This document shows, in pieces, positions 11,025 through 60,006 of a stretch of 64,000 nucleotides of DNA (position 1 is its first letter; each line of letters starts with the position of its first letter). The stretch lies in the NCBI GenBank assembly GCA_021799485.1, contig JAJZAK010000003.1, positions 29,813 to 93,812 of the forward strand, read 5' to 3'. The notes under the pieces were generated by a model, which did no database searches, was not told where the DNA came from, and was given only the letters and a program-made list of their open reading frames with translations. A program made the position numbers and the translations under genes. This DNA is from a bacterium (GTDB lineage Bacteria; Elusimicrobiota; Elusimicrobia; UBA1565; UBA9628).

Positions 11025-12553
<1,529 letters not shown>

Positions 12554-12663
12554 CGATTTTCGGTCTCACGTCCGGAAATCTGTCGCCCCTTGGGCCACAA
12601 GACCTGGTCGTTTCAGGCTTCTGGTTCGCGGGACGCCCATTGACTCGCAAATTTCCCTCGAGA

Positions 12664-12735
12664 GGGCTCGTAGCTCAGGGGTAGAGCACACGCTTGATAA
12701 GCGTGGGGTCGGAGGTTCGAAACCTCCCGGGCCCA
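12664..12735 (+). tRNA. tRNA-Ile(GAT), CCA not encoded
   Basis: Cloverleaf; anticodon arm CACGC-TTGATAA-GCGTG; T-loop GTTCGAA. Confidence 0.97.
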
Positions 12736-12742
12736 AGTTTTT

Positions 12743-12815
12743 GGGCCCTTAGCTCAGCTGGGAGAGCGCCTGCTTTGCAAGCAGGAGGTCGGCGGTTCGA
12801 TTCCGCCAGGGTCCA
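12743..12815 (+). tRNA. tRNA-Ala(TGC), CCA not encoded
   Basis: Anticodon arm CCTGC-TTTGCAA-GCAGG; G3-U70 identity pair. Confidence 0.97.
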
Positions 12816-12856
12816 TGCGGTTGGAGTGGCCGCGAGAGAGGGTTGGAGCCAATTTT

Positions 12857-12869
12857 GGTTCTTTGACAA
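12857..12869 (+). promoter_or_regulatory. Spacer boxA
   Basis: GGTTCTTTGACAA after tRNA-Ala. Confidence 0.65.
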
Positions 12870-13013
12870 TGATAGCGCAGGCTTTGGATACCGTCGTCCG
12901 ATAAGTCCCTTGGGGGCGCGGCGCCGAATCCGAGGCCAAGAAATCAAGAAGGCCGAGCGTCTTTGGAGCGCAGATCTCCCCATGACCGGGAGATATGCGC
13001 GATGGAAGAATAT

Positions 13014-16026
<3,013 letters not shown>

Positions 16027-16121
16027 GTATTCTTCGATCGAAGAGAAAAGCTCGGTCTTCTTGGAAAGCGTTGGTCAATATCGTATGATATGCTGTTTTG
16101 GCGAAATCTTGGGGTCTCGGC

Positions 16122-16245
16122 AAGGCCGGTGACAATTCCGGCGGGGAAACACCCGTTCCCATTCCGAACACGGCAGTTAAGCCCGCCAGGGCCGATGGTA
16201 CTAGCGCCCAACTCGGCGCTGGGAGAGTAGGTCGTTGCCGGCCTT
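16122..16245 (+). rRNA. rrf: 5S ribosomal RNA
   Basis: CCCATTCCGAAC, GCCGATGGTACT, GGGAGAGTAGG; terminal stem AAGGCCGG/CCGGCCTT. Confidence 0.96.
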
Positions 16246-16286
16246 ACCGAGACCCTGGGGCATCGGGGGCCCGTGGCATCCTGATC

Positions 16287-17069
16287 TTGGGCCTATCCTT
16301 TGGTTGCTCCGCTGGCGCGGGCGCGAAAACGCTCGGGCTGTCGGCGAGGCAGATGCCGGCGGGGTCGTTTCAAATCGTTCCGTACTTCTCCGGGTTTCAG
16401 GATCAAAAGTTGAACTTCGCGGTGACGCAGCCGGCGACGTGCAGCACGCCCAATGGTCTTCCGTTCTCTTGCACGGGGGGCGGGACGGTCGAGGCGAGCG
16501 GGAGCGGGCAGGCCGCCATGGTCAAGGTGGTGGCGCAGCCGTGGGAGGGATTTCAATATTATCTGTCGGCGGGCGCCGGGAGCTTCTCGGTGGCGATTCC
16601 GTCGGTGACGGTCACGAACACTCTCTCCGGCGACAATCCCGGGGTTATCTTCGACGGAGGCTTGCGCGCCGTGGTGGTGCCGGATACGATCGTATCCCCG
16701 GCGGTCGCCGTCGACGCGGGCTTTTCGGGGTCTTGGTATCCGCTGGACCAGATTTCGGGGGCCTCGACGGGCGGCATCGACGATAGGCTGACGATTTTAA
16801 ACGAGCAGGTTGCCGTCGAGACCAGCCATTTGTTTTGTCCCATGGGCGTCGGCGGCTGGAAGTTCGATCCCTACGGCGGCGTCGAATGGGTGCGGTATCA
16901 AACCGATTTGAAGGATCTCTCGGACGGGAGCCATGCGGGAGGCTTGACGGACGTCGTCACGCCTTTCGCCGGCATTCGCATCGGTCCGTATCCGCACGAG
17001 GGTGTTTTTGGCGAGGCTTCCTTCGTGGATGGCTATCATTACGCGGGGGGGCTTTATATCCAGTTTTAG
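16287..17069 (+). CDS. Putative outer-membrane beta-barrel protein; start uncertain
   Basis: Signal-peptide-like RGILILGLSFGCSAGAGA, alternating amphipathic strands (DPYGGV, TPFAGIRI, GEASF), C-terminal GLYIQF; no ATG/GTG ahead of the signal. Confidence 0.65.
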   Translation: MGLSFGCSAGAGAKTLGLSARQMPAGSFQIVPYFSGFQDQKLNFAVTQPATCSTPNGLPFSCTGGGTVEASGSGQAAMVKVVAQPWEGFQYYLSAGAGSFSVAIPSVTVTNTLSGDNPGVIFDGGLRAVVVPDTIVSPAVAVDAGFSGSWYPLDQISGASTGGIDDRLTILNEQVAVETSHLFCPMGVGGWKFDPYGGVEWVRYQTDLKDLSDGSHAGGLTDVVTPFAGIRIGPYPHEGVFGEASFVDGYHYAGGLYIQF

Positions 17070-50275: not shown

Positions 50276-51594
50276 GACGCGACATCGATTGGATCTTTTG
50301 GGGCAGCCTTATCTTGCTCGTGGCGTTCGGCGTCGCCGCTGTCGCGTCCGCGGCGAGCCCGTTGCCTCACTACGGCCGTGTTTTGAGCCGCCAGTTCGAG
50401 GCCTTGGGCGTCGGGTTTCTCGTCTTCGGTTTGGCGTGGCGCTGGCCCTATCCAGTCTACCAGGGCCAAGCGAAGGCGATCTACGCGGCGTCGTTGGCGT
50501 TGCTCGTCCTTGTATTGATCGTTGGGACCTCGCACAAAGGCCATCGCTCCTGGATTGAGTTTTTCCACATCACTCTGCAGCCGTCGGAGTTGGCGCGCGT
50601 GGGCTTCATCATCGCCTTGGCCGACTACCTTTCGCGACGGGAAAAGACCGTAAGCCGCCCTGAAGTGGTGGGAGGGGCGATCCTGCTCGCGCTTCCCGTC
50701 CTCCTTTTAATCCTCAGGGAGCCCGACGTCTCCTCCGCCTTGACTTTCGTTCCGATCATCTTGGCCATGCTCTTCTGCGCGGGCGCCAAACCCGCGCATC
50801 TGGTGGGATTTCTCTTGTGGGGAGCGGTCGCTGGAAGCTTGGTCCTCGCGGATCTCTTCTACGAGGCCCGCTATTCGGGCGGCGATTACGCCCCCCGCGC
50901 GATGCTTTTCTTCCTGGAGGCGTTCCATCGCGTCGGTCCTTTCCTTGCCTTTCTCGCCATGCCCTTCGCGGCCGCGGCCCTCTGGAGACGGCTCGCGGAG
51001 TTCCTGGGGGCTAGGCTCCCGCTGGCGAAGGCCCTGCGTTGGGCCGCGATCGTCGCGGTTGGATTTCTCTGCGCGGTCGCGTCGGTGCGGCTCCTCAAGG
51101 ACTACCAAAGGCGGCGATTCCTGGCCTATCTGGCGCCTCACTCCCGAGCGTCCGGGGCGGCGTATCACGCCCAGCAGTCGAAGATCGCCGTCGGGTCGGG
51201 GGGGGTGATCGGGAAGGGCCTCTTTAGCGGCACGCAGTCGCGGCTCGGCTTTTTGCCCGAGCGCCACACGGATTTCATCTATGCGGTCATCGGCGAGGAA
51301 ACCGGCTTTGTCGGCTCGATGAGCCTTTTAGCCCTCTATCTTCTGCTCATCCGCCGAATCCTCGCCGCCGCAAAGACGGCTCCTGACCGCTTCGGTTCGC
51401 TCGTTTGCAGCGGAATCGCGGCGATGATGGGCTTCGAATTTTTAGTGAACGCGGGAATGTGCGTCGGCTTGAATCCCGTCGCGGGGCTTCCGCTGCCGTT
51501 GGTGTCCTACGGCGGTTCGAGCCTCCTGGCGACTTTTTGGGCGCTTGGGATCGTGGCCAACGTTTATTCCCGAAGACTAAGAATGGAATTTTAA
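50272..51594 (+). CDS. rodA: SEDS glycosyltransferase RodA
   Basis: QPSELA, GSGG..GKG, LPERHTDFI, PLVSYGGSS. Confidence 0.95.
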   Translation: MRRDIDWIFWGSLILLVAFGVAAVASAASPLPHYGRVLSRQFEALGVGFLVFGLAWRWPYPVYQGQAKAIYAASLALLVLVLIVGTSHKGHRSWIEFFHITLQPSELARVGFIIALADYLSRREKTVSRPEVVGGAILLALPVLLLILREPDVSSALTFVPIILAMLFCAGAKPAHLVGFLLWGAVAGSLVLADLFYEARYSGGDYAPRAMLFFLEAFHRVGPFLAFLAMPFAAAALWRRLAEFLGARLPLAKALRWAAIVAVGFLCAVASVRLLKDYQRRRFLAYLAPHSRASGAAYHAQQSKIAVGSGGVIGKGLFSGTQSRLGFLPERHTDFIYAVIGEETGFVGSMSLLALYLLLIRRILAAAKTAPDRFGSLVCSGIAAMMGFEFLVNAGMCVGLNPVAGLPLPLVSYGGSSLLATFWALGIVANVYSRRLRMEF

Positions 51595-51612
51595 GGCCTG
51601 AAAGGGGGAACG

Positions 51613-53370
51613 ATGCCAGAACAGGAAAAACACGGCGAGCCGGCCGAGGCGCAGGGCGGCCAGGATCAGCCGCCCAAGCCGCAAGAGGCGTCCATGCCGG
51701 CGCCATCGAATCCATCCAGCGGCGGCCCCGCCCGGGAGGGCGAGGCCCGTCGCGAGAGGCACGCGCGGGGCTTCCGCTCGCGGCGGGGGCGCCGCGGACG
51801 GGGAGGCGCCGGGCACGGGGACGGGAGCCACGGCCACGCGCATCCCCATGCTCCCGCGGGCGGGCCGGCGCACGAGCATGCCCAGCGACATCAGCACGCG
51901 CATGCTCCCGCGCCGGCGCCGCGCCAAGGCGGCAAGCCCTCGAAGCGCGAAATTCTCGCCGCCACGAACTTCGAGGAGACGCGCGTCGCTCTCGTTGAGG
52001 ACGGGAGGCTCGCGGAGCTCTTCTGGGAACGAAAGAGCGAGGAGTCCATCGTCGGCAACATTTACAAGGGGACGGTCGAGAACGTTCTGCCGGGCATCTC
52101 CTCGGCTTTCGTGAACATCGGGTACGAGAAGAACGCCTATCTTTACATCTCGGATGTCATCGGCGAGCGCAGCGCTCCCATCGACGCCCGTTTGAAGCGC
52201 GGCCGGCACATCATGGTGCAGGTGGCCAAGGAGGCGATCGGAACAAAGGGAATGAAGGTGAGCATGGATGTGGCGTTGCCAGGAAAATACCTTATCCTGA
52301 CCCCCTTCAGCGATTTCGTCGGCGTTTCGCGTTCGATCGATGATTCCGCCCAGCGCGAGCGCCTGGGGGTGATCGCCCAGGGCCTCGCGACGAAGGGCCT
52401 GGAGGGGCGCGGCCTCATTATACGCACGGAGGCCGAGGGGGTCCAAGCTTCGGAGCTCGAGCGGGAGCTCCAATATCTGCTGTCCCTGTGGAAGACGATC
52501 GAGGAAAAGTTCGAGTCCTCGCAGGCTCCGGCTCTCCTCTACAAGGATCTCGACCTGGCCGACCAGATCGCGCGGGACGTCTTATCGGATGATATCCTGG
52601 TCTACCTCCTCGACGACAGGACCAGCTACCAGAACGTGCTCGACTTTCTGGAGCGGACATCTCCCGAGCTCAAAAACCGAGTGCGTCTCTACGAGGGGAA
52701 AACCCCCATCTTCAAGGCCTACCGGATCGAGGAGGAAATCGAGAAGCTCCGGCAGATCAAGGTCGAGCTCACGAGCGGAGGTTCCATCATCATCCAGGAG
52801 GCGGAATCCCTCTGCGCGATAGACGTCAACACGGGCCGCTTCACGGGCTCGCGCTCGCAGGAGGAGACGGTCACCTTGACGAACATCGAGGCCGCCCAGG
52901 AGGTCGCGCACCAGCTGAGGCTGCGCAACATCGGCGGCATCATCGTCGTTGACTTCATCGACATGAAGAAGGCTTCGAACCGCAACAAGGTGATGGAGGC
53001 GTTTTCCCAGGCGCTCAAGAACGACCGCGCCAAGGTCCGCATTCTGCCGATCACCCGTCTGGGCTTGATCGAACTGACCCGGGAGCGCAAGCGGGAGTCG
53101 ACGGTTTCCTTCATGACCGAGGAGTGCCCGCAATGCAAAGGCTCCGGAAGGGTCCTTTCGGGGGAGACCTTGCGCATCCGCATCCAGCGCGAGATCATGG
53201 AGATGACCGGAGGGCGTCCCGGGGGGCAGGTGCGCCTTCAGCTTCATCCGGGGCTCGCCGAGCAATTTCACGCCAGACTCGGGACGATCGAAAAGAACGT
53301 GCACCGTTCGATCAAGATCGATCCCACGCCGCAGCTTCTGTGGGAGGATTACAGAATCATACTCGAATGA
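51613..53370 (+). CDS. rng: Ribonuclease E/G family with long disordered N-terminus
   Basis: GNIYKG, AFVNIG, IDVNTG, LRNIGGIIVVDFIDM, CPQCKGSG. Confidence 0.93.
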   Translation: MPEQEKHGEPAEAQGGQDQPPKPQEASMPAPSNPSSGGPAREGEARRERHARGFRSRRGRRGRGGAGHGDGSHGHAHPHAPAGGPAHEHAQRHQHAHAPAPAPRQGGKPSKREILAATNFEETRVALVEDGRLAELFWERKSEESIVGNIYKGTVENVLPGISSAFVNIGYEKNAYLYISDVIGERSAPIDARLKRGRHIMVQVAKEAIGTKGMKVSMDVALPGKYLILTPFSDFVGVSRSIDDSAQRERLGVIAQGLATKGLEGRGLIIRTEAEGVQASELERELQYLLSLWKTIEEKFESSQAPALLYKDLDLADQIARDVLSDDILVYLLDDRTSYQNVLDFLERTSPELKNRVRLYEGKTPIFKAYRIEEEIEKLRQIKVELTSGGSIIIQEAESLCAIDVNTGRFTGSRSQEETVTLTNIEAAQEVAHQLRLRNIGGIIVVDFIDMKKASNRNKVMEAFSQALKNDRAKVRILPITRLGLIELTRERKRESTVSFMTEECPQCKGSGRVLSGETLRIRIQREIMEMTGGRPGGQVRLQLHPGLAEQFHARLGTIEKNVHRSIKIDPTPQLLWEDYRIILE

Positions 53371-54185
53371 GGAGATATTTCGCTTCGAGGATCCGGTTCG
53401 GGCTCGCGCGGGCCGCCGGGGCGGCGGTCCTTGTCGCCGTGTTCGCCGCGGCCGCTCCCCCGCGCAAGATCCGCGTCCTCGTCGACCCCGGTCACGGGGG
53501 AAAAGACGCCGGCGCCATCGGCTGGAAAAGGACGAAGGAGAAGGACGTGAATCTGAGAACCGCTCTCGATCTCGCCAAGCGCCTGCGGGAGACGGGCCTT
53601 TTTGACGTGAGGCTCACGCGCACGAAAGACGTCTTCGTGACGCTGCCGAATCGCTGCCGACTGGCGAACGATTGGAAGGCGGATCTCTTCGTCTCGATCC
53701 ACGCCAACTACGCGCACGATCGCCGTGAAAAGGGCGCGGAGGTCTATTTCCTCTCCGATCACGCCTCGGACCCCGAGGCGGCCCGCCTGGCGGAGGTGGA
53801 GAACGCGGCCGACGCCGGGCCTCCGGACCCATCGCGGGACGGCGAGGTCGCCCAATCGATCCTGGGCGTGATGGCGAGAACGGAGAATTTGAACCGAAGC
53901 TCGAAGCTCGCGGCGACCTTGGCTCTGGCCCTGAAAAAAAAGACGACATTGTCGAGCCGCGGCGTCAAGCAGGCGAGCCTCTACGTCCTTCATTGGACGG
54001 ACGCGCCCGCGGCCCTGGTCGAAATGGGATTCGTCTCGAACCGCAAGGATGCCGCGCGCCTCCGTTCCGCCAGTTTTAGGAACAAGATCGCGAAGGCCTT
54101 GGCTTCGGGAATCGTGGAATACGCGCGCAGCAAGGAGTTTGTCGAGCAGATGCGGCAAGGATCCATGACGGCGGGGACGCAATGA
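53367..54185 (+). CDS. N-acetylmuramoyl-L-alanine amidase (Amidase_3)
   Basis: N-terminal signal; DPGHGG.D.GA, FVSIHAN, LVEMGF. Confidence 0.92.
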   Translation: MRRYFASRIRFGLARAAGAAVLVAVFAAAAPPRKIRVLVDPGHGGKDAGAIGWKRTKEKDVNLRTALDLAKRLRETGLFDVRLTRTKDVFVTLPNRCRLANDWKADLFVSIHANYAHDRREKGAEVYFLSDHASDPEAARLAEVENAADAGPPDPSRDGEVAQSILGVMARTENLNRSSKLAATLALALKKKTTLSSRGVKQASLYVLHWTDAPAALVEMGFVSNRKDAARLRSASFRNKIAKALASGIVEYARSKEFVEQMRQGSMTAGTQ

Positions 54186-54997
54186 GACGGGCGGATGTCT
54201 CTCGGCCGATCGGGGTTTTCGATTCCGGCTTGGGGGGGCTGACCGTCTTTAAGGCGCTGTCTCGTCGCCTCCCCGGGGAGGACCTTGTTTATTTCGGGGA
54301 CACCGCCCATGTTCCCTATGGATCTAAATCGGCCGCGGAGGTCGAGCGCTGTTCCCTGGCCGCGGCGCGGTTTCTCATGGGGAAACATATCAAGGCCCTG
54401 GTCGTCGCCTGCAACACGTCGTCGGCCTTGGCGCTTCCCAGGCTGCGCCGGGAGCTTCCAGTCCCCGTGATGGGCGTCATCGAGCCGGGGGCGCGGGCCG
54501 CCGCCTTAGCCAGTCGCGGAGGAAAGGTCGGCGTGATCGGGACGGAAGCCACCGTTTTGTCGGGCGCCTACCCGGAGGCGCTTCGAAGAGCTCTTCCGGG
54601 CGCCAAGATCAAGGCCGCCGCGTGCCCGCTCTTTGTTCCCTTGGTGGAGGAGGGCTGGTGGGGCGGTCCGGTGGCCTTGGAGACGGCCCGGCGCTATCTC
54701 TCTCCCATGAAGCGCTTCGGAGCCGACACCTTGATCCTCGGGTGCACGCATTACCCGCTTTTGAAGGGAGTGATCGGCCGTGTCATGGGTCCCGGCGTTC
54801 GGCTCGTTGACTCGGCCGTCGAGGCCTCGAAGGAAGCGGCGCGGCAGCTTGAGGCGATGGGGCTTCGGAGAGTCGCGGCGTCGCGCCGGGGGCGCTGGTC
54901 GTTCTACGCCTCGGATGCCCCCCGGCGTGTGCTGCGCTTGGCGCGGCGGTGGCTTGGGACGGGAGAGCTCCGCGTCGAGCTCGCGAATTTGCCATGA
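54182..54997 (+). CDS. murI: Glutamate racemase
   Basis: FDSGLGGLTV, ACNTSS, LGCTHYP. Confidence 0.97.
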   Translation: MRRADVSRPIGVFDSGLGGLTVFKALSRRLPGEDLVYFGDTAHVPYGSKSAAEVERCSLAAARFLMGKHIKALVVACNTSSALALPRLRRELPVPVMGVIEPGARAAALASRGGKVGVIGTEATVLSGAYPEALRRALPGAKIKAAACPLFVPLVEEGWWGGPVALETARRYLSPMKRFGADTLILGCTHYPLLKGVIGRVMGPGVRLVDSAVEASKEAARQLEAMGLRRVAASRRGRWSFYASDAPRRVLRLARRWLGTGELRVELANLP

Positions 54998-55668
54998 CCA
55001 GGAATCAGGAAAAACAAGCTCATCCGCGCTGGCTTGAGATCGCGAAGGCCCGGATCGACAACGGGTTGAGCCGCTTGGGGAAATCGCTTGATGCGAGCCA
55101 TCCCGTCGACAGGGCCCTCATGCTCCTGACGGCCCGGATGGTCTCCGTCGCCGACGCCGCGGCGCTTTTGTGCCTGCGCGACCACGCGGCGGAGGCGCCT
55201 CCCCTGTCTGTCGCGCTGATCGGCTTCGCGGCCGAGATGCGCGAGATCGCGCGGGATTCCGACGAAGCGCGCGCCCGGCGCTTCCTCGACGGCGAGCCGG
55301 TCGTGCTGTGCGGGGACCCCCGCTGGCGCGCGGAGTTCGACTGGCGCCTCAAGAGCCTGGGCTTCCAGGAGGAGCTGCGGGATGCCCTCCGCGCTTGGCA
55401 GATCGCTTTCGTCAGGGGAGGAGCCGGCGGCCTTCCCTGGAGCCATCTCTTCGACGCCCGTCCGGCCGCGGATGCCGCGGAGCGGGATTGGCTTGAGGCG
55501 GCGGCGATATCCATGGGGCACGCGCTTAAGGCGCTTGAAACCCGCTGGCCGAAAGCCTTCCCCGGCGCGGCCGAGGATTTGTGGTCCGAAATCGTCCGCG
55601 GCCGCCCCCAAGCCCGCCCTGCCTTCCGGCAGGCAGGCGAACAAAGTCGCAAGGAGAATAGCCCATGA
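54994..55668 (+). CDS. Hypothetical helical protein (possible degenerate DUF5677/HEPN-like)
   Basis: ATGA overlaps at both ends; all-helical pattern; family assignment is pattern-based only. Confidence 0.6.
   Translation: MTRNQEKQAHPRWLEIAKARIDNGLSRLGKSLDASHPVDRALMLLTARMVSVADAAALLCLRDHAAEAPPLSVALIGFAAEMREIARDSDEARARRFLDGEPVVLCGDPRWRAEFDWRLKSLGFQEELRDALRAWQIAFVRGGAGGLPWSHLFDARPAADAAERDWLEAAAISMGHALKALETRWPKAFPGAAEDLWSEIVRGRPQARPAFRQAGEQSRKENSP
55618..55639 (+). repeat. Short palindromic repeat copy, 3' end of the gene before rho
   Basis: CCTGCCTTCCGGCAGGCAGGCG. Confidence 0.65.
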
Positions 55669-56681
55669 GCGAAGCAAGAAGATACGAGCACCGTCCGAGG
55701 TTTTTCAGGCCGAGGCATCGGCCCAAGCACGGCTACGGCGGCTGGCAGGGAGGCGGACAGCACCAACAGAACCCGCAGAAGCGCTTCAACAAAGGCTCCG
55801 ACATGACCGTTGATTTGGGGCCGGCGGAAAAGGAGTTCATGACGAAAACCCCCGTCGACCCCATGGAGTGGATTTCTCTCGAGAAAGGCTCGAACGATCC
55901 CTCGATGCGGGCGGTGGACCTCCTCTGTCCGATCGGGAAGGGGACACGAGGGCTCATCGTCGCCCCGCCCAAGGTGGGAAAGACGACATTTCTCAAGCAG
56001 ATATCCAACGCCGTCAAGGAGAGCGCGCCCGAAATCCAGCAGTACTGCCTGCTGGTCGACGAGCGCCCCGAGGAAGTCACGGACTTCAAGCGCAGCGTCC
56101 CGGCGGAAGTGCACGCTTCCTCAAGCGACCAGTCCTACGAAAACCATGTGGTCGTCGCCGAGGCGCTTATGCGCAAGGCCGTCGAGGACGCGAACGCCGG
56201 CAAGGATGTCTTCCTCCTTATCGACTCCCTCACCAGGCTTTCGCGGGTGCACAACCAGTTCTCGCCCGGCAACCGCACGATGTCGGGGGGGCTCGACTCG
56301 AGGGCGATGGTGATCCCCCGGCGCTTCTTCGGTCTGGCGAGAAAGATCGAGGAGGGAGGGTCTCTCACCATCTTGGCGACCATCCTTGTGGACACCGGAA
56401 GCAAAATGGACGACATCATCTTCCAGGAGTTCAAAGGGACGGGCAACATGGATCTGGTCCTCTACCGGCCCGCGGCCGATATGCGCATCTTCCCGGCGCT
56501 CAAGATCCGCGATACCGGAACGCGCAAGGAGGAAAAGCTCCTTCCGCCGGATTTTCTGGAGGGCGCCTGGAAGCTGCGGCGTCATATGGCGGGCCTCTCC
56601 GACATCGAGGCCATCAAGGCCCTGACCGAGCTCCTGCGCAGCTACAAGACGAACAAGGCGCTCCTGGGGGCCCTGCGTTGA
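55665..56681 (+). CDS. rho: Transcription termination factor Rho, N-terminally short form (338 aa)
   Basis: PIGKGTRGLIVAPPKVGKT, DERPEEVTD, DSLTRL, EEGGSLTILAT, EFKGTGNM, GTRKEE. Confidence 0.92.
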   Translation: MSEARRYEHRPRFFRPRHRPKHGYGGWQGGGQHQQNPQKRFNKGSDMTVDLGPAEKEFMTKTPVDPMEWISLEKGSNDPSMRAVDLLCPIGKGTRGLIVAPPKVGKTTFLKQISNAVKESAPEIQQYCLLVDERPEEVTDFKRSVPAEVHASSSDQSYENHVVVAEALMRKAVEDANAGKDVFLLIDSLTRLSRVHNQFSPGNRTMSGGLDSRAMVIPRRFFGLARKIEEGGSLTILATILVDTGSKMDDIIFQEFKGTGNMDLVLYRPAADMRIFPALKIRDTGTRKEEKLLPPDFLEGAWKLRRHMAGLSDIEAIKALTELLRSYKTNKALLGALR

Positions 56682-57049
56682 AAGAGGACCTTAAGCCGGG
56701 CATGGTCAAGCCTATCGGCCCTTACTCTCCGGCCAGGGCCGCGGGCGAGTGGCTCTTCGTTTCGGGGCAGATCGCCTTGGACGAGTCGGGTCAGCTCGTC
56801 CAGGGGACGGCCGCGCGCCAGGCGGAAATCTGTCTTCGGCATCTGGGCGCGCGCTTGCGGGAGGCGGGATTTTCCCCCGCGGATGTCGTCAAGACGACGG
56901 TCTTCCTCGCCGACATGGGTAGCTTCGCCGAGGTCAACGAGGTCTACGCGAAGTTCTTCGCCCCTCCCTATCCGGCGAGGTCCGCCGTGGCTGTCGTGGC
57001 GCTCCCCAAGGGCGCCGCCGTCGAGATCGAGGCTGTCGCGCGGCGATAG
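56678..57049 (+). CDS. ridA: RidA/YjgF enamine-imine deaminase (start TTG 56678 or ATG 56702)
   Basis: IGPYS, FVSGQI, VVKTTVFL, PARS, LPKGAAVEIE. Confidence 0.93.
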   Translation: MKEDLKPGMVKPIGPYSPARAAGEWLFVSGQIALDESGQLVQGTAARQAEICLRHLGARLREAGFSPADVVKTTVFLADMGSFAEVNEVYAKFFAPPYPARSAVAVVALPKGAAVEIEAVARR

Positions 57050-57056
57050 CGCGTTC

Positions 57057-59141
57057 GTGCCGCAGCCCAGAAAAGCGGTTCCTTTGACGATCGCCGCCCT
57101 GATCTGGGCGGGCGCGGTGATCATCGCGCGGGCAGTCCATGTCGCGGCAAAAAAACCAAGCGGCCCGGCGGCGCCTGCGCGATGGTTGACGGGCGCCCTC
57201 GCCGTGGGCTCCCATTTCGCTTCGTTCTGGGCGGCGCATGCGGCGAGGCTCGCGCTGTGCCTCCTTTTTTTCGCGGGCGTCCATGCCTGCGGGCGTTGGG
57301 CGCTTGAAGGAATCCTGGAGGCGGATCGCGACGCGGAGACGGAGGCCCTTCGTCCGTTGTTCTCCATCGCGCTGGGGCTCGGTTTAGTCGGCTACCTCGC
57401 CTTCTTCATGGCGGCCGCGGGGTTGTCGGGCCGGGGGTGGGCCGACGCGGGCTTCGCGATGGTGTCTGGACTTGGAGCCTGGAACTTGCGGCGCTTTGGA
57501 AAAAGGCCAAGGATCGCGTCGTTCTCATGGCTCTTGGAGCGCCGCGGCATCCTGGAGCGTGGCGCGCTTCTTTTCCTAGCCGCGGGCCTTGCGTATTCTT
57601 TTTTGGGGACCACGGTTCCCGAGGTCTTTTATGACGCGCTCGTTTATCATTTGGCCGTTCCGCAGGCCTATCTGGCCTCGGGCCGCATGGTCGACCTTCC
57701 CTATAACCATTATTCGTATTTGCCGCTCTTCGTTTCGATGCTCTATTACTGGGCGCTCGCCGCCGGGGGGATGTACGCGGCGAAGATATTCGCTTTTTTC
57801 CTGGGCCTCTGCCTTTTGGCGGCGCTCGTCGCCGGGGGCAGGTTTTTCAAGGATTGGGGCTCGGGACTTGTCGCGGCGGCGCTCTTCCTGGGGGCGCCTC
57901 TCGTGCTGCTTCTTTTTTGGGAGTGCAACTCGGATGGCGGCGCGGCGTTTTACCTCGCCCTCTCGATCTTGAGCTTCGCCCAGTGGCGCCGCCGCGGGGC
58001 CGACGCCCGCCGGTGGCTCTATCTTTCGGGACTTATGGGAGGACTCGCCCTGGCCTCCAAGTATACGACAGCCATCGGCGTCGCGTGCCTGGCTTTCGCG
58101 GCGTTCGTCGCGACGTCGCGCGCGGGTCTCCGGAGGCGGTTGGGAACCTTGATGCTCTACGCGGCCTTGATGATGGCTCCGCTTCTTCCCTGGTGGGTCC
58201 GCAACGGAGTTTATGCGGGGAATCCCTTTTATCCGTACCTGGCCGGCGTTCTGGGGGGGCCGAACGCCGAGTCGGCCTTGCTTGAGGGGTGGCGCGCGGA
58301 TGCGCGCGGTGGTTCTCCGGGATTTCACCCGTCGGCGATGGCGGCAAAGATATGGCGGGACGCCATGCGCGGGTTCGAGCATCCTTCTTATTACGATACG
58401 GGCCCCGCTTTTGTCGCATTCCTTCCCTGGACCGCTTGGGCGGTCCAGGAGACTTGGGGACCGTTTTTGGCGGTCTATGCCGCGAGCGCCTATGGGCTCG
58501 GGCTGTGCGCGACATACGTCACCCGGTTTCTGACGCCGTATCTCATTCCAGTCTGTTGGCTCTTGGCCGTCGGCATCGTCGCGGCGGCGGCGACCAGGGC
58601 CGTCGCGCTGTGTCTCGGGACGTTGCTCGCGGCCAGCCTGTTCGCCAATCTCTACCAGCTTTCGAAAGTGACGCTGGGGACAAGCGGAAGAGGCTTGGCT
58701 GTCGCGGAAGGCTTGATGACGCCCGAGACCTACTTGAGCAAGCAGCGCAACCTCTATCCCCAACCCAGCTACGGGGCCTGGAGCTATCTCAGAAAATACG
58801 GCCTTCCTAAGGAGGGGGCCATTTTATTGATAGGAGATTCGCGCGCCTTCTACAGCCCGGCGCCGACGATCGCCGGGGCTCCCTATGACCCGCCGCCGGC
58901 TTTCGCGTGGGCGCGCGCTTCAAGGGATCCGGAGGAGCTCTGGAGAAAACTGCGGGAGGAGGGCGTGAGCGTCGTGGTATCGAACGGCGCGGAACTCCAA
59001 CGAGACTATCCCGCGGCCTACAGGGACGACAGGAGATCCATCGCGATGATCTCGCGGACGCTCAAGGACCACTTTAAGTTGGTTTATCAGGATCGCTATG
59101 CGGTCGTCTATCTTCTCCGAAATCCCGCATCCTCTTCTTGA
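57057..59141 (+). CDS. Polytopic membrane protein, GT-C (PMT/ArnT-like) glycosyltransferase
   Basis: Many TM segments; YDALVYHL..P loop, SKYT, PWWVRN..GNPFYP. Confidence 0.7.
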   Translation: MPQPRKAVPLTIAALIWAGAVIIARAVHVAAKKPSGPAAPARWLTGALAVGSHFASFWAAHAARLALCLLFFAGVHACGRWALEGILEADRDAETEALRPLFSIALGLGLVGYLAFFMAAAGLSGRGWADAGFAMVSGLGAWNLRRFGKRPRIASFSWLLERRGILERGALLFLAAGLAYSFLGTTVPEVFYDALVYHLAVPQAYLASGRMVDLPYNHYSYLPLFVSMLYYWALAAGGMYAAKIFAFFLGLCLLAALVAGGRFFKDWGSGLVAAALFLGAPLVLLLFWECNSDGGAAFYLALSILSFAQWRRRGADARRWLYLSGLMGGLALASKYTTAIGVACLAFAAFVATSRAGLRRRLGTLMLYAALMMAPLLPWWVRNGVYAGNPFYPYLAGVLGGPNAESALLEGWRADARGGSPGFHPSAMAAKIWRDAMRGFEHPSYYDTGPAFVAFLPWTAWAVQETWGPFLAVYAASAYGLGLCATYVTRFLTPYLIPVCWLLAVGIVAAAATRAVALCLGTLLAASLFANLYQLSKVTLGTSGRGLAVAEGLMTPETYLSKQRNLYPQPSYGAWSYLRKYGLPKEGAILLIGDSRAFYSPAPTIAGAPYDPPPAFAWARASRDPEELWRKLREEGVSVVVSNGAELQRDYPAAYRDDRRSIAMISRTLKDHFKLVYQDRYAVVYLLRNPASSS

Positions 59142-60006
59142 GAAGCGCGCGCTTCTCGGGGGCCAGCGGCACGAGGGGCGGGCGCAGGATGTCCCTGGAG
59201 AGTCCCGCCAGGGCCAGGGCGGCCTTGAGCGGGATCGGGTTCGACTCCCCATAGAGGGCCTTGATGGCCGGAAGCATTCGAAGATGGATCTCGCGCGCGC
59301 GTCTAAAGTCGTCGCCGAGGGCCGCCCGATAAAGCTCGGCGACGTTTGCCGGCGCGAGATTGGACAGGACGCTGACCGCCCCTCGGGCGCCGACCGAAAG
59401 CATGGGGAGGATCAGCGAGTCGTCTCCCGCGAGGAGGGAAAAGTCCGGAGGCGCCAGACGCAGGATCTCGCTGGCCTGGTCGAGGCTTCCTGAGGATTCC
59501 TTGACGGCGATGATGCGGGGGATCTCCCGGGCCATGCGGGCCACCGTTTCCGGCTCGATGTTGACCGCCGTCCGGCCTGGAATATTGTAGATGATGATCG
59601 GAATCTTGGTGGCCCTGGAGATGGAGGAGTAATGAGCGGCGATGCCGCGCTGGGGCGGCTTATTGTAGGAAGGGGCCGTCACGAGAAGAGCCTGCGCGCC
59701 CGCGGATTGGGCTCTCTGTGCAAGCCGGACGGCCGCGGCCGTGTTGTTGACGCCCACGCCGGCGATGATGATCATGTCTCCGGCTTCCGCGATGGCGGCG
59801 CGGATCAGAGCCGCCAACTCCCCGGGCTCAAGCGCGCTTCCCTCTCCGGTTGAGCCGCCGATCACGACGCCTTCGACGCCTGCGGCGGCCTGCCGCCGCA
59901 GCAGCCGGCGGAAAGCGGGCATGTCGAGGGAGAAGCCGGGACGAAACGGCGTCGCGAGCGCGGTAAAGACGCCGGCGAGGGGCAGGCGTATCCGGCGCGC
60001 GATCAC
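59074..60006 (-). CDS. dapA: 4-hydroxy-tetrahydrodipicolinate synthase
   Basis: TALATPF, GSTGE, YNIPGRT, VKES, NPIPLK. Confidence 0.95.
   Translation of the reverse strand: MIARRIRLPLAGVFTALATPFRPGFSLDMPAFRRLLRRQAAAGVEGVVIGGSTGEGSALEPGELAALIRAAIAEAGDMIIIAGVGVNNTAAAVRLAQRAQSAGAQALLVTAPSYNKPPQRGIAAHYSSISRATKIPIIIYNIPGRTAVNIEPETVARMAREIPRIIAVKESSGSLDQASEILRLAPPDFSLLAGDDSLILPMLSVGARGAVSVLSNLAPANVAELYRAALGDDFRRAREIHLRMLPAIKALYGESNPIPLKAALALAGLSRDILRPPLVPLAPEKRALLKKRMRDFGEDRRPHSDPDKPT

Follow-up and report, generated by a model that had tools for sequence, protein, structure and literature searches.

A Rho-family protein of uncultured Elusimicrobiota with a short basic tail in place of the primary RNA-binding domain

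Introduction

The OB-fold primary site of the termination factor Rho reads rut sequences and has been treated as a defining part of the protein. Recent surveys, in the parts available to us, require its presence before a Rho is called functional; for Moreira et al. (2024; PMC11347177, cited throughout from the available portions of the text and supplement) a functional Rho combines an RNA-binding domain with an ATPase domain. The 64,000-nucleotide stretch of contig JAJZAK010000003.1 analyzed here (the window), from an Elusimicrobiota assembly, carries on its forward strand at 55665..56681 a Rho-family gene, called short rho below, of 338 codons plus a TGA stop. Its 338-aa product lacks the part of Rho that holds this site. 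The locus therefore raises the question of whether such a gene is a working Rho, an accessory copy, or an artifact of decay, assembly or start annotation.

Results

Domain content and start of short Rho

Short Rho keeps the C-terminal RecA-type motor only, and the primary RNA-binding domain is replaced by a 57-aa cationic tail. The basic, low-complexity tail comprises residues 1-57 (55665..55835, + strand), followed by the linker and the Rho ATPase/translocase domain at residues 58-338 (55836..56678, +). In Pfam the sole match was PF00006, at residues 81-281; neither PF07497 (OB or cold-shock-like RNA-binding domain) nor PF07498 (Rho_N) was matched at E ≤ 0.01. The NCBIfam Rho equivalog NF006886 scored 353.3 bits against a cut-off of 315, aligning residues 55-335 with profile positions 130-411 of 413. 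Since this alignment starts at profile position 130, homology begins exactly at the linker and C-terminal domain. Scores stayed below the cut-off for TIGR00767 (338.4 bits, cut-off 509.45) and for NF041509, paralog_Rho2 or "Rho, short form" (291.1, cut-off 628), and 12/12 relatives also fell below the latter (288.7-398.8).

A hidden Markov model (HMM) of the OB domain was built from 11 Pfam-confirmed Rho RNA-binding domains. It matched none of the 39 full-length orthologues described below, versus 155 of the 214 assembled sequences overall. A six-frame search with this HMM gave no match in 769,354 bases (47 Elusimicrobiota-type loci and the window); 23 of 27 control loci were matched in the same search, the other four being cut at the N-terminus. 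A Rho RNA-binding domain was found in none of the 54 window proteins. The loss of helix bundle and OB fold and their replacement by an R/H/G/Q-rich tail had been proposed in a sequence-only reading of the window, and the profile and HMM searches bear this out. Having an ATPase domain without RNA-binding domain or Rho_N, short Rho falls outside the functional-Rho definition of PMC11347177.

The start of the gene was located as follows. A Shine-Dalgarno-like AGGAG (55652..55656, +) lies 8 nt 5′ of the ATG, and this ATG and the upstream gene's TGA share the ATGA at 55665-55668. An in-frame TAG (55659..55661, +; like the AGGAG, read from the sequence) stands two codons (6 nt) before the ATG, so the frame is not extendable in the 5′ direction. 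A close upstream stop was also found at the related loci L001 and L002. Exactly 57 residues precede F58 of the linker motif, and the tail string quoted in the sequence-only reading corresponds to residues 5-38. That reading had given the same open reading frame (ORF), the same 57 residues and a start set by the ATGA overlap and a ribosome-binding site, all of which were recovered here. GC content at third codon positions is 0.83, like that of the adjoining genes.

Integrity of the motor

Short Rho matched Rho chains in the PDB at E = 4.9e-81 to 1e-71, and type III secretion system (T3SS) and F1 ATPases at E ≥ 1.9e-10. Eighteen functional positions were mapped through the printed alignment to the PDB sequence that includes 1xpo (E. 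coli Rho according to PMC11347177), in which residues 136-410 align to short Rho 60-331. Identical to E. coli are P180, K184, T185, D210, E211, R212, D265, S266, R269, R272, L320, T323, K326, G337, R353 and R366; substituted are K283 (to R) and T286 (to S). Seventeen of the 18 positions are invariant in 39/39 orthologues, and the last is S in 31 and T in 8.

On the + strand, the Walker A motif or P-loop (residues 100-107, 55962..55985) holds P102, K106 and T107, corresponding to E. coli P180, K184 and T185 and invariant in 39/39. D132-E133-R134 (56058..56066) corresponds to D210, E211 and R212. The Walker B region with the Arg sensor (56223..56246; D187, S188, R191 and R194 for D265, S266, R269 and R272), the R-loop region (56385..56405; L241, T244 and K247 for L320, T323 and K326) and R287 (56523..56525; R366) are likewise invariant at these residues. 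In the Q-loop region of the secondary RNA-binding site (56274..56297), R204 replaces K283 and is invariant in 39/39, and S207, replacing T286, is the variable position. We take E. coli E211 and R212, corresponding to E133 and R134, to be the catalytic Glu and the Arg valve, and R287/R366 to be the arginine finger; the loop names and the RNA contacts of the Q- and R-loops are presumed in the same way. The ATPase, Q-loop and R-loop motifs, described as intact from the sequence alone, thus hold up when mapped position by position.

The bicyclomycin pocket of E. coli Rho comprises P180, K184, D210, E211, R212, D265, S266, R269, L320, T323 and G337 (PMC11347177), and 11/11 of these residues are the same in short Rho. 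Because the pocket is intact, sensitivity to the drug is predicted, which offers a simple experimental handle.

Orthologues, tail and selection

In a homologue search 8000 candidates were scored. The best 120 had PF00006 only in 120/120 cases, with 67-96% identity and lengths of 262-408 aa, and those among them named by taxon were Rho proteins of Elusimicrobia or Elusimicrobiota metagenome-assembled genomes (MAGs). A scan of species-representative genomes yielded 74 loci, of which 47 were Elusimicrobiota-type (66-95% identity); the other 27 came from Planctomycetota, Verrucomicrobiota, Desulfobacterales and others (46-60%). Full-length genes were rebuilt from 40 of the 47 loci, L007, L015, L033, L034, L037, L045 and L072 being left out as cut by a contig end. 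L035, with a 5′ end that looks frameshifted, and L044, with a different tail, were also set aside, so that the orthologue set consisted of 38 loci and the window. The OB-less form is the standard one for a large clade of uncultured Elusimicrobiota: in a survey of the phylum, such as the sequence-only reading had proposed, it recurs in 38 further, independent full-length Elusimicrobiota-type assemblies, so that it is no product of chance.

The tails of the 39 orthologues measure 57-128 aa (median 105) and carry a net charge of +6 to +10 in 39/39. They contain 13-39% G, 3-23% Q, 9-23% R+K and 3-18% hydrophobic residues. The window tail, at a net charge of +6, has 21% R+K, 14% G, 9% Q and 7% H, and no Pfam or NCBIfam domain was found in it. 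A start motif is conserved across the orthologues; most of them also have a run of 6-7 arginines, which is absent from the window's subclade. The tail is constrained in kind, not in sequence.

Ratios of nonsynonymous to synonymous substitution (dN/dS) were calculated by the Nei-Gojobori method for 14 close pairs. They ranged from 0.006 to 0.116 for the motor, answering in the affirmative the earlier question of purifying selection, and from 0.01 to 0.59 for the tail. In the window subclade (against L001 and L002) tail values were 0.03-0.07; such low values indicate that the tail is translated and constrained, which makes both translation from M59 and gene decay less likely. The gene codes for a Rho-family protein that is intact and under selection.

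Some loci depart from the common pattern. At L035:9089-10855, on a 3.1-Mb contig, the 5′ end of short rho is seemingly frameshifted, with the start motif out of frame; the first in-frame ATG gives 297 aa, and an assembly indel in the G-rich tail-coding region may be responsible. L044:9473-10843 is a more distant Elusimicrobia member (66% motor identity) with a 175-aa G/Q/H-repeat tail, and its usual neighbors (amidase, murI, ridA) are absent. L019 and L025, contigs of one MAG record set, carry two differing DUF5677-rho-ridA copies with tails of 108 and 111 aa and different start motifs; a mixed bin or a real duplication is possible.

Phylogeny and wider kin

A search of 1.84 billion representatives returned 6822 relatives, the best mostly 47-60% identical to short Rho. 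Three rows of higher identity (P0121, 73%; P0123, 81%; P0202, 61%) were dropped from the trees, having fewer than 255 motor residues aligned. P0122, P0129, P0133, P0143, P0151, P0152 and P0156 gave no OB match and start with a basic low-complexity tail. A FastTree phylogeny was built from 182 rows, including 14 of the 39 short-clade rows, after removal of seven rows with fewer than 255 aligned motor residues; an IQ-TREE quick search under LG+C20 used 65 rows (47 chosen, 18 random).

In both trees the Elusimicrobiota short forms fall into one group (support 98), joined successively by L044 (96-98), by P0122 with P0133 (96) and by P0129 (89-93). In the IQ-TREE phylogeny all OB-bearing rows lie across one branch from the OB-less clade (support 93), and in FastTree this clade is adjoined by Desulfobacterales forms of 356-357 aa with OB domain and motor (support 93). 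The window protein groups with further OB-less forms, whose near relatives include records named Elusimicrobiota and Omnitrophota. In the P0122 family, judged by the best 120 of 8000 scored members, 119/120 have PF00006 only, and the named members are Elusimicrobiota (2), Omnitrophica/Omnitrophota (6) and Verrucomicrobiae (1). Because the trees are unrooted and hold no named canonical Elusimicrobiota Rho, they are compatible both with domain loss in an orthologue and with an old paralogue.

Among the wider relatives, P0145 and P0125 have a basic R/Q/H/P-rich N-terminal tail, then an OB domain, then the motor, and could be intermediates between canonical and OB-less Rho. The best-scoring canonical Rho, P0126, belongs to Bacillota (Pelotomaculum/Desulfofundulus group). 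PF00006-only "Rho family" clusters in the ESM Atlas come most commonly from Planctomycetota, Eiseniibacteriota and Methylomirabilota and serve as leads only.

Gene cluster and neighborhood

The window is a core region, with nuo genes, an rrn operon, rplL-rpoB-rpoC, the S10/spc/alpha ribosomal clusters and mreB-mreC-pbp2-rodA. Short rho belongs to the cluster mreBC-pbp2-rodA-rng-amidase-murI-[DUF5677]-rho-ridA, whose order from mreB to ridA is fixed in related loci. This conserved cluster also holds the RNase E/G gene rng (51613-53370), three genes upstream of short rho, and a functional link between an RNA motor and RNA decay is conceivable. The rng gene is followed on the + strand by an N-acetylmuramoyl-L-alanine amidase gene (53124..54185; PF01520, 2e-55), by the glutamate racemase gene murI (54182..54997; PF01177, 8.4e-24; syntenic in 34 loci) and by a DUF5677-family gene of 224 aa (54994..55668) between murI and rho. 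The RidA (Endoribonuclease L-PSP) family gene ridA (56702..57049, +; PF01042, 2.2e-36) begins 20 nt 3′ of rho and follows it in 46 of the 47 Elusimicrobiota-type loci.

ATGA overlaps chain amidase to murI (54182-54185), murI to DUF5677 (54994-54997) and DUF5677 to rho (55665-55668), which points to coupled translation of the cell-wall genes and the Rho-like motor. A promoter and terminator scan of 51000-59500 gave no promoter-like site on the + strand before rho and no other telling signal; with the three ATGA junctions, this makes co-transcription likely.

Median identity to the window was determined for each cluster gene across loci, L001 and L002 being omitted as near-identical. The Rho motor (76.4%, 44 Elusimicrobiota-type loci) ranked second of 10 genes, after MreB (86.6%) and before RNase E/G (65.6%), MurI (61.0%), RidA (55.5%), PBP2 (50.3%), the amidase (49.1%), RodA (44.6%), MreC (40.6%) and DUF5677 (38.2%).

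The DUF5677 gene is present between murI and rho in 28 of the 34 loci that have both; in the other six, murI leads directly into rho. PF18928 (DUF5677) was matched at E ≤ 1 by 22 of 23 upstream-gene orthologues (best 1.8e-9). The window copy taken alone gave no match, and it is 88% identical to the L002 copy. An AlphaFold2 (AF2) model showed an all-alpha, eight-helix bundle (predicted local distance difference test, pLDDT, 81; predicted template modeling score 0.80), and a fold search with it against the PDB returned no match (best E 0.53). As modeled, the protein is neither an OB fold nor a Rho_N bundle. A complex prediction of short Rho with DUF5677 (score 0.00, mark 0.32) counts neither for nor against binding.

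In PADLOC, DUF5677 gave no match, Rho a 21.9-bit P-loop match, and the ridA gene a match to PD-T4-2_B (83.7 bits). The last most likely reflects the shared RidA domain and not a defense system; a defense reading of the locus was rejected in view of the fixed housekeeping synteny.

Elsewhere in the window, a complete rrn operon (11025-16243; 16S, tRNA-Ile-GAT, tRNA-Ala-TGC, 23S, 5S) lies about 1.5 kb upstream of rplL-rpoB-rpoC. A 323-aa ORF at 16098-17069 is probably spurious, since it overlaps the 5S gene and has no Pfam match. A 752-aa PMT_2-like glycosyltransferase ORF (56883-59141) as listed overlaps the end of ridA by 167 nt; its true start is probably further downstream, and its Pfam match is weak (22.7 bits, under the cut-off).

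Discussion

Proposed function

On balance, short Rho is somewhat more probably than otherwise a working hexameric RNA translocase or terminator in which RNA is captured electrostatically by the tails. It would form a Rho-like hexameric ring and, by hydrolyzing ATP, pull RNA 5′ to 3′ through the central channel. Without the OB-fold sites, pyrimidine-rich rut RNA would not be read. Instead, six flexible tails might crown the ring, catch bare, untranslated RNA non-specifically by charge and pass it into the channel; with +6 to +10 on each chain, their charge would total about +36 to +60 per ring. NusG on RNA polymerase probably helps ring closure, a dependence known from E. coli mutants of the primary site. 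In this way unprotected transcripts would be terminated or removed with little regard to their sequence, and the G/Q/R-rich tail may also drive condensation, as in other Rho disordered regions. Action aided by NusG and free of a primary site is plausible because in E. coli, according to the available part of Shashni et al. (2014; PMC4150792), rut recognition can be compromised to a large extent with no serious loss of termination across the genome, NusG-assisted recruitment and activation compensating. The candidate roles named in the sequence-only reading were rut-independent terminator, RNA translocase, condensate former and modulator of full-length Rho hexamers, and the present evidence is compatible with each of them.

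Several points weigh against this proposal. That short Rho forms hexamers, binds RNA through its tail and depends on NusG is in each case inferred. The AF2 monomer of short Rho, computed from a 23-row alignment of close relatives, is poor as a whole (pLDDT 56.6), so that the values below 50 for tail residues 1-49 are weak evidence of disorder. ATPase-only Rho proteins are known from sequences alone, and PMC11347177 states that such sequences "are not functional Rho factors". Of the 2730 genomes covered by that work, 28 contribute the 28 ATPase-only "Rho-like" sequences catalogued in its supplement, and these isolates belong to Pseudomonadota, the PVC group, Chloroflexi and Myxococcales; for those phyla, its Table 2 gives a single species without Rho, a Myxococcota. 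These 28 would therefore be extra copies, as might short Rho. For two cultured Elusimicrobiota, Elusimicrobium minutum and Endomicrobium proavitum, the available portions of PMC11347177 record a single 418-aa Type 1 Rho apiece and no further Rho-domain protein; because both have canonical Rho only, the short clade is not simply "the Elusimicrobiota Rho".

That the short form is nevertheless the only Rho in the genomes at hand, and in those of related Omnitrophota, with its tail serving as an RNA-capture and possibly a condensate module, is a more tentative proposal to which we give somewhat less than an even chance. Neither the 64-kb window nor about 705 kb of sequence flanking 47 related loci yielded a canonical rho; these stretches make up a small part of each genome.

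Alternative explanations

The alternative that survives best, a serious candidate that we consider rather doubtful, is an accessory paralogue: a canonical Rho would be encoded elsewhere in the genome and the short form specialised, either joining mixed hexamers in which it modulates the activity or condensation of Rho, or serving as an RNA translocase in its own right, for example with RNase E/G. A Rho-like motor working with RNase E/G has a precedent in the degradosome, and rng stands in the same conserved cluster. The branch that the short clade occupies apart from the OB-bearing rows, with Desulfobacterales OB-plus-motor forms as its FastTree neighbors, is consistent with such an origin. 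The 28 ATPase-only forms of PMC11347177, second copies by the reasoning above, point the same way; hetero-hexamers are raised there for N-terminally reduced copies, and the canonical-only state of the cultured Elusimicrobiota would fit an old duplication with differential loss. Against a paralogue stand the strong conservation of the motor (76% median identity, dN/dS no higher than 0.12), its place in a housekeeping operon that stays fixed though MurI is only 55-65% identical, and, for the small part of each genome that they represent, the flanks free of canonical rho.

A split Rho, in which the coupled upstream DUF5677 protein supplies RNA binding in trans, is quite unlikely. The gene abuts or overlaps the start of rho (as ATGA in the window) and lies between murI and rho in most loci. 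However, its product belongs to DUF5677 and not to a Rho domain family, is predicted to be all-alpha with eight helices and not an OB fold, has no fold match in the PDB, is missing from the site in 6 of 34 loci and is the least conserved of the cluster genes.

Equally hard to sustain, and if anything a shade less probable, is a wrong start, with translation from M59 giving a bare 280-aa motor without tail. Several database entries of 280-297 aa do start at the equivalent methionine, but the Shine-Dalgarno site lies ahead of the first ATG, which overlaps the upstream stop; the tail is under purifying selection in the window subclade; and start motif and positive net charge are kept in 39/39 orthologues despite a twofold variation in length. 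That the gene is a pseudogene, which the sequence-only reading had already doubted, or lost its N-terminal domain through an assembly deletion is refuted: nothing speaks for it, 38 independent assemblies have the same architecture, a stop in frame lies 6 nt upstream, no OB-coding remnant occurs in any frame, and purifying selection is strong.

Significance

A large, strongly selected clade that carries a charged tail for an OB fold offers a natural experiment on two questions: to what extent Rho depends on reading RNA sequence, and what its disordered regions contribute. If short Rho is the sole Rho, a whole bacterial branch would carry out factor-dependent termination without a primary binding site, hence without reading rut sequences; primary-site-independent termination would become directly testable, the scoring of Rho in candidate phyla would change, and surveys that require PF07497 would wrongly call these lineages devoid of functional Rho. 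If it is a paralogue, the Rho motor would have a conserved second role.

Comparison with known systems

Our literature search turned up no description of an Elusimicrobiota or Omnitrophota Rho devoid of the RNA-binding domain. The available portions of the main text and supplement of PMC11347177 contain no mention of the short Elusimicrobiota clade, and OB-less forms of this kind are not discussed in the accessible parts of PMC13613805 and PMC12360218. The sequence-only reading had allowed that this short class might already be characterised; as far as the available parts of PMC11347177 go, it is catalogued there, with neither an experimental characterisation nor an Elusimicrobiota example.

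The closest likeness is to that ATPase-only class, which has the same architecture: the ATPase/bicyclomycin domain alone, with essential residues kept and, in the Myxococcales members, a D/G/R-rich initial region (PMC11347177). The present clade differs in belonging to uncultured Elusimicrobiota, in its strong conservation and in its fixed housekeeping cluster, the likeness being one of architecture. With canonical Rho of the E. coli type (NF006886/TIGR00767; 1pv4, 1xpo, 3ice) short Rho shares the motor, E. coli residues 136-410, and lacks the first ~130 residues (Rho_N bundle and OB primary site), having the 57-aa cationic tail there. FliI/T3SS and F1 ATPases have the RecA-type hexameric ATPase fold and PF00006 in common with it, but score at most 65 bits against 353 for Rho, and short Rho has the Rho-specific RNA loops. 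The N-terminally reduced Rho (Type 4 or Type 2d, the older "Group B"; NF041509) is likewise shortened but keeps the OB fold, and the Type 2 atypical Rho combines a biased region with the RNA-binding domain, whereas short Rho has the biased region only. In the Rho proteins of Bacteroides thetaiotaomicron and Mycobacterium tuberculosis, a G/Q/R/N-rich region lies N-terminal of the motor, as in short Rho, and according to published abstracts and the available parts of PMC11347177 the disordered regions of Bacteroides and Mycobacterium Rho influence RNA selection and phase separation. Those two species retain the whole N-terminal domain and have the disordered region in addition, whereas in short Rho such a region substitutes for that domain.

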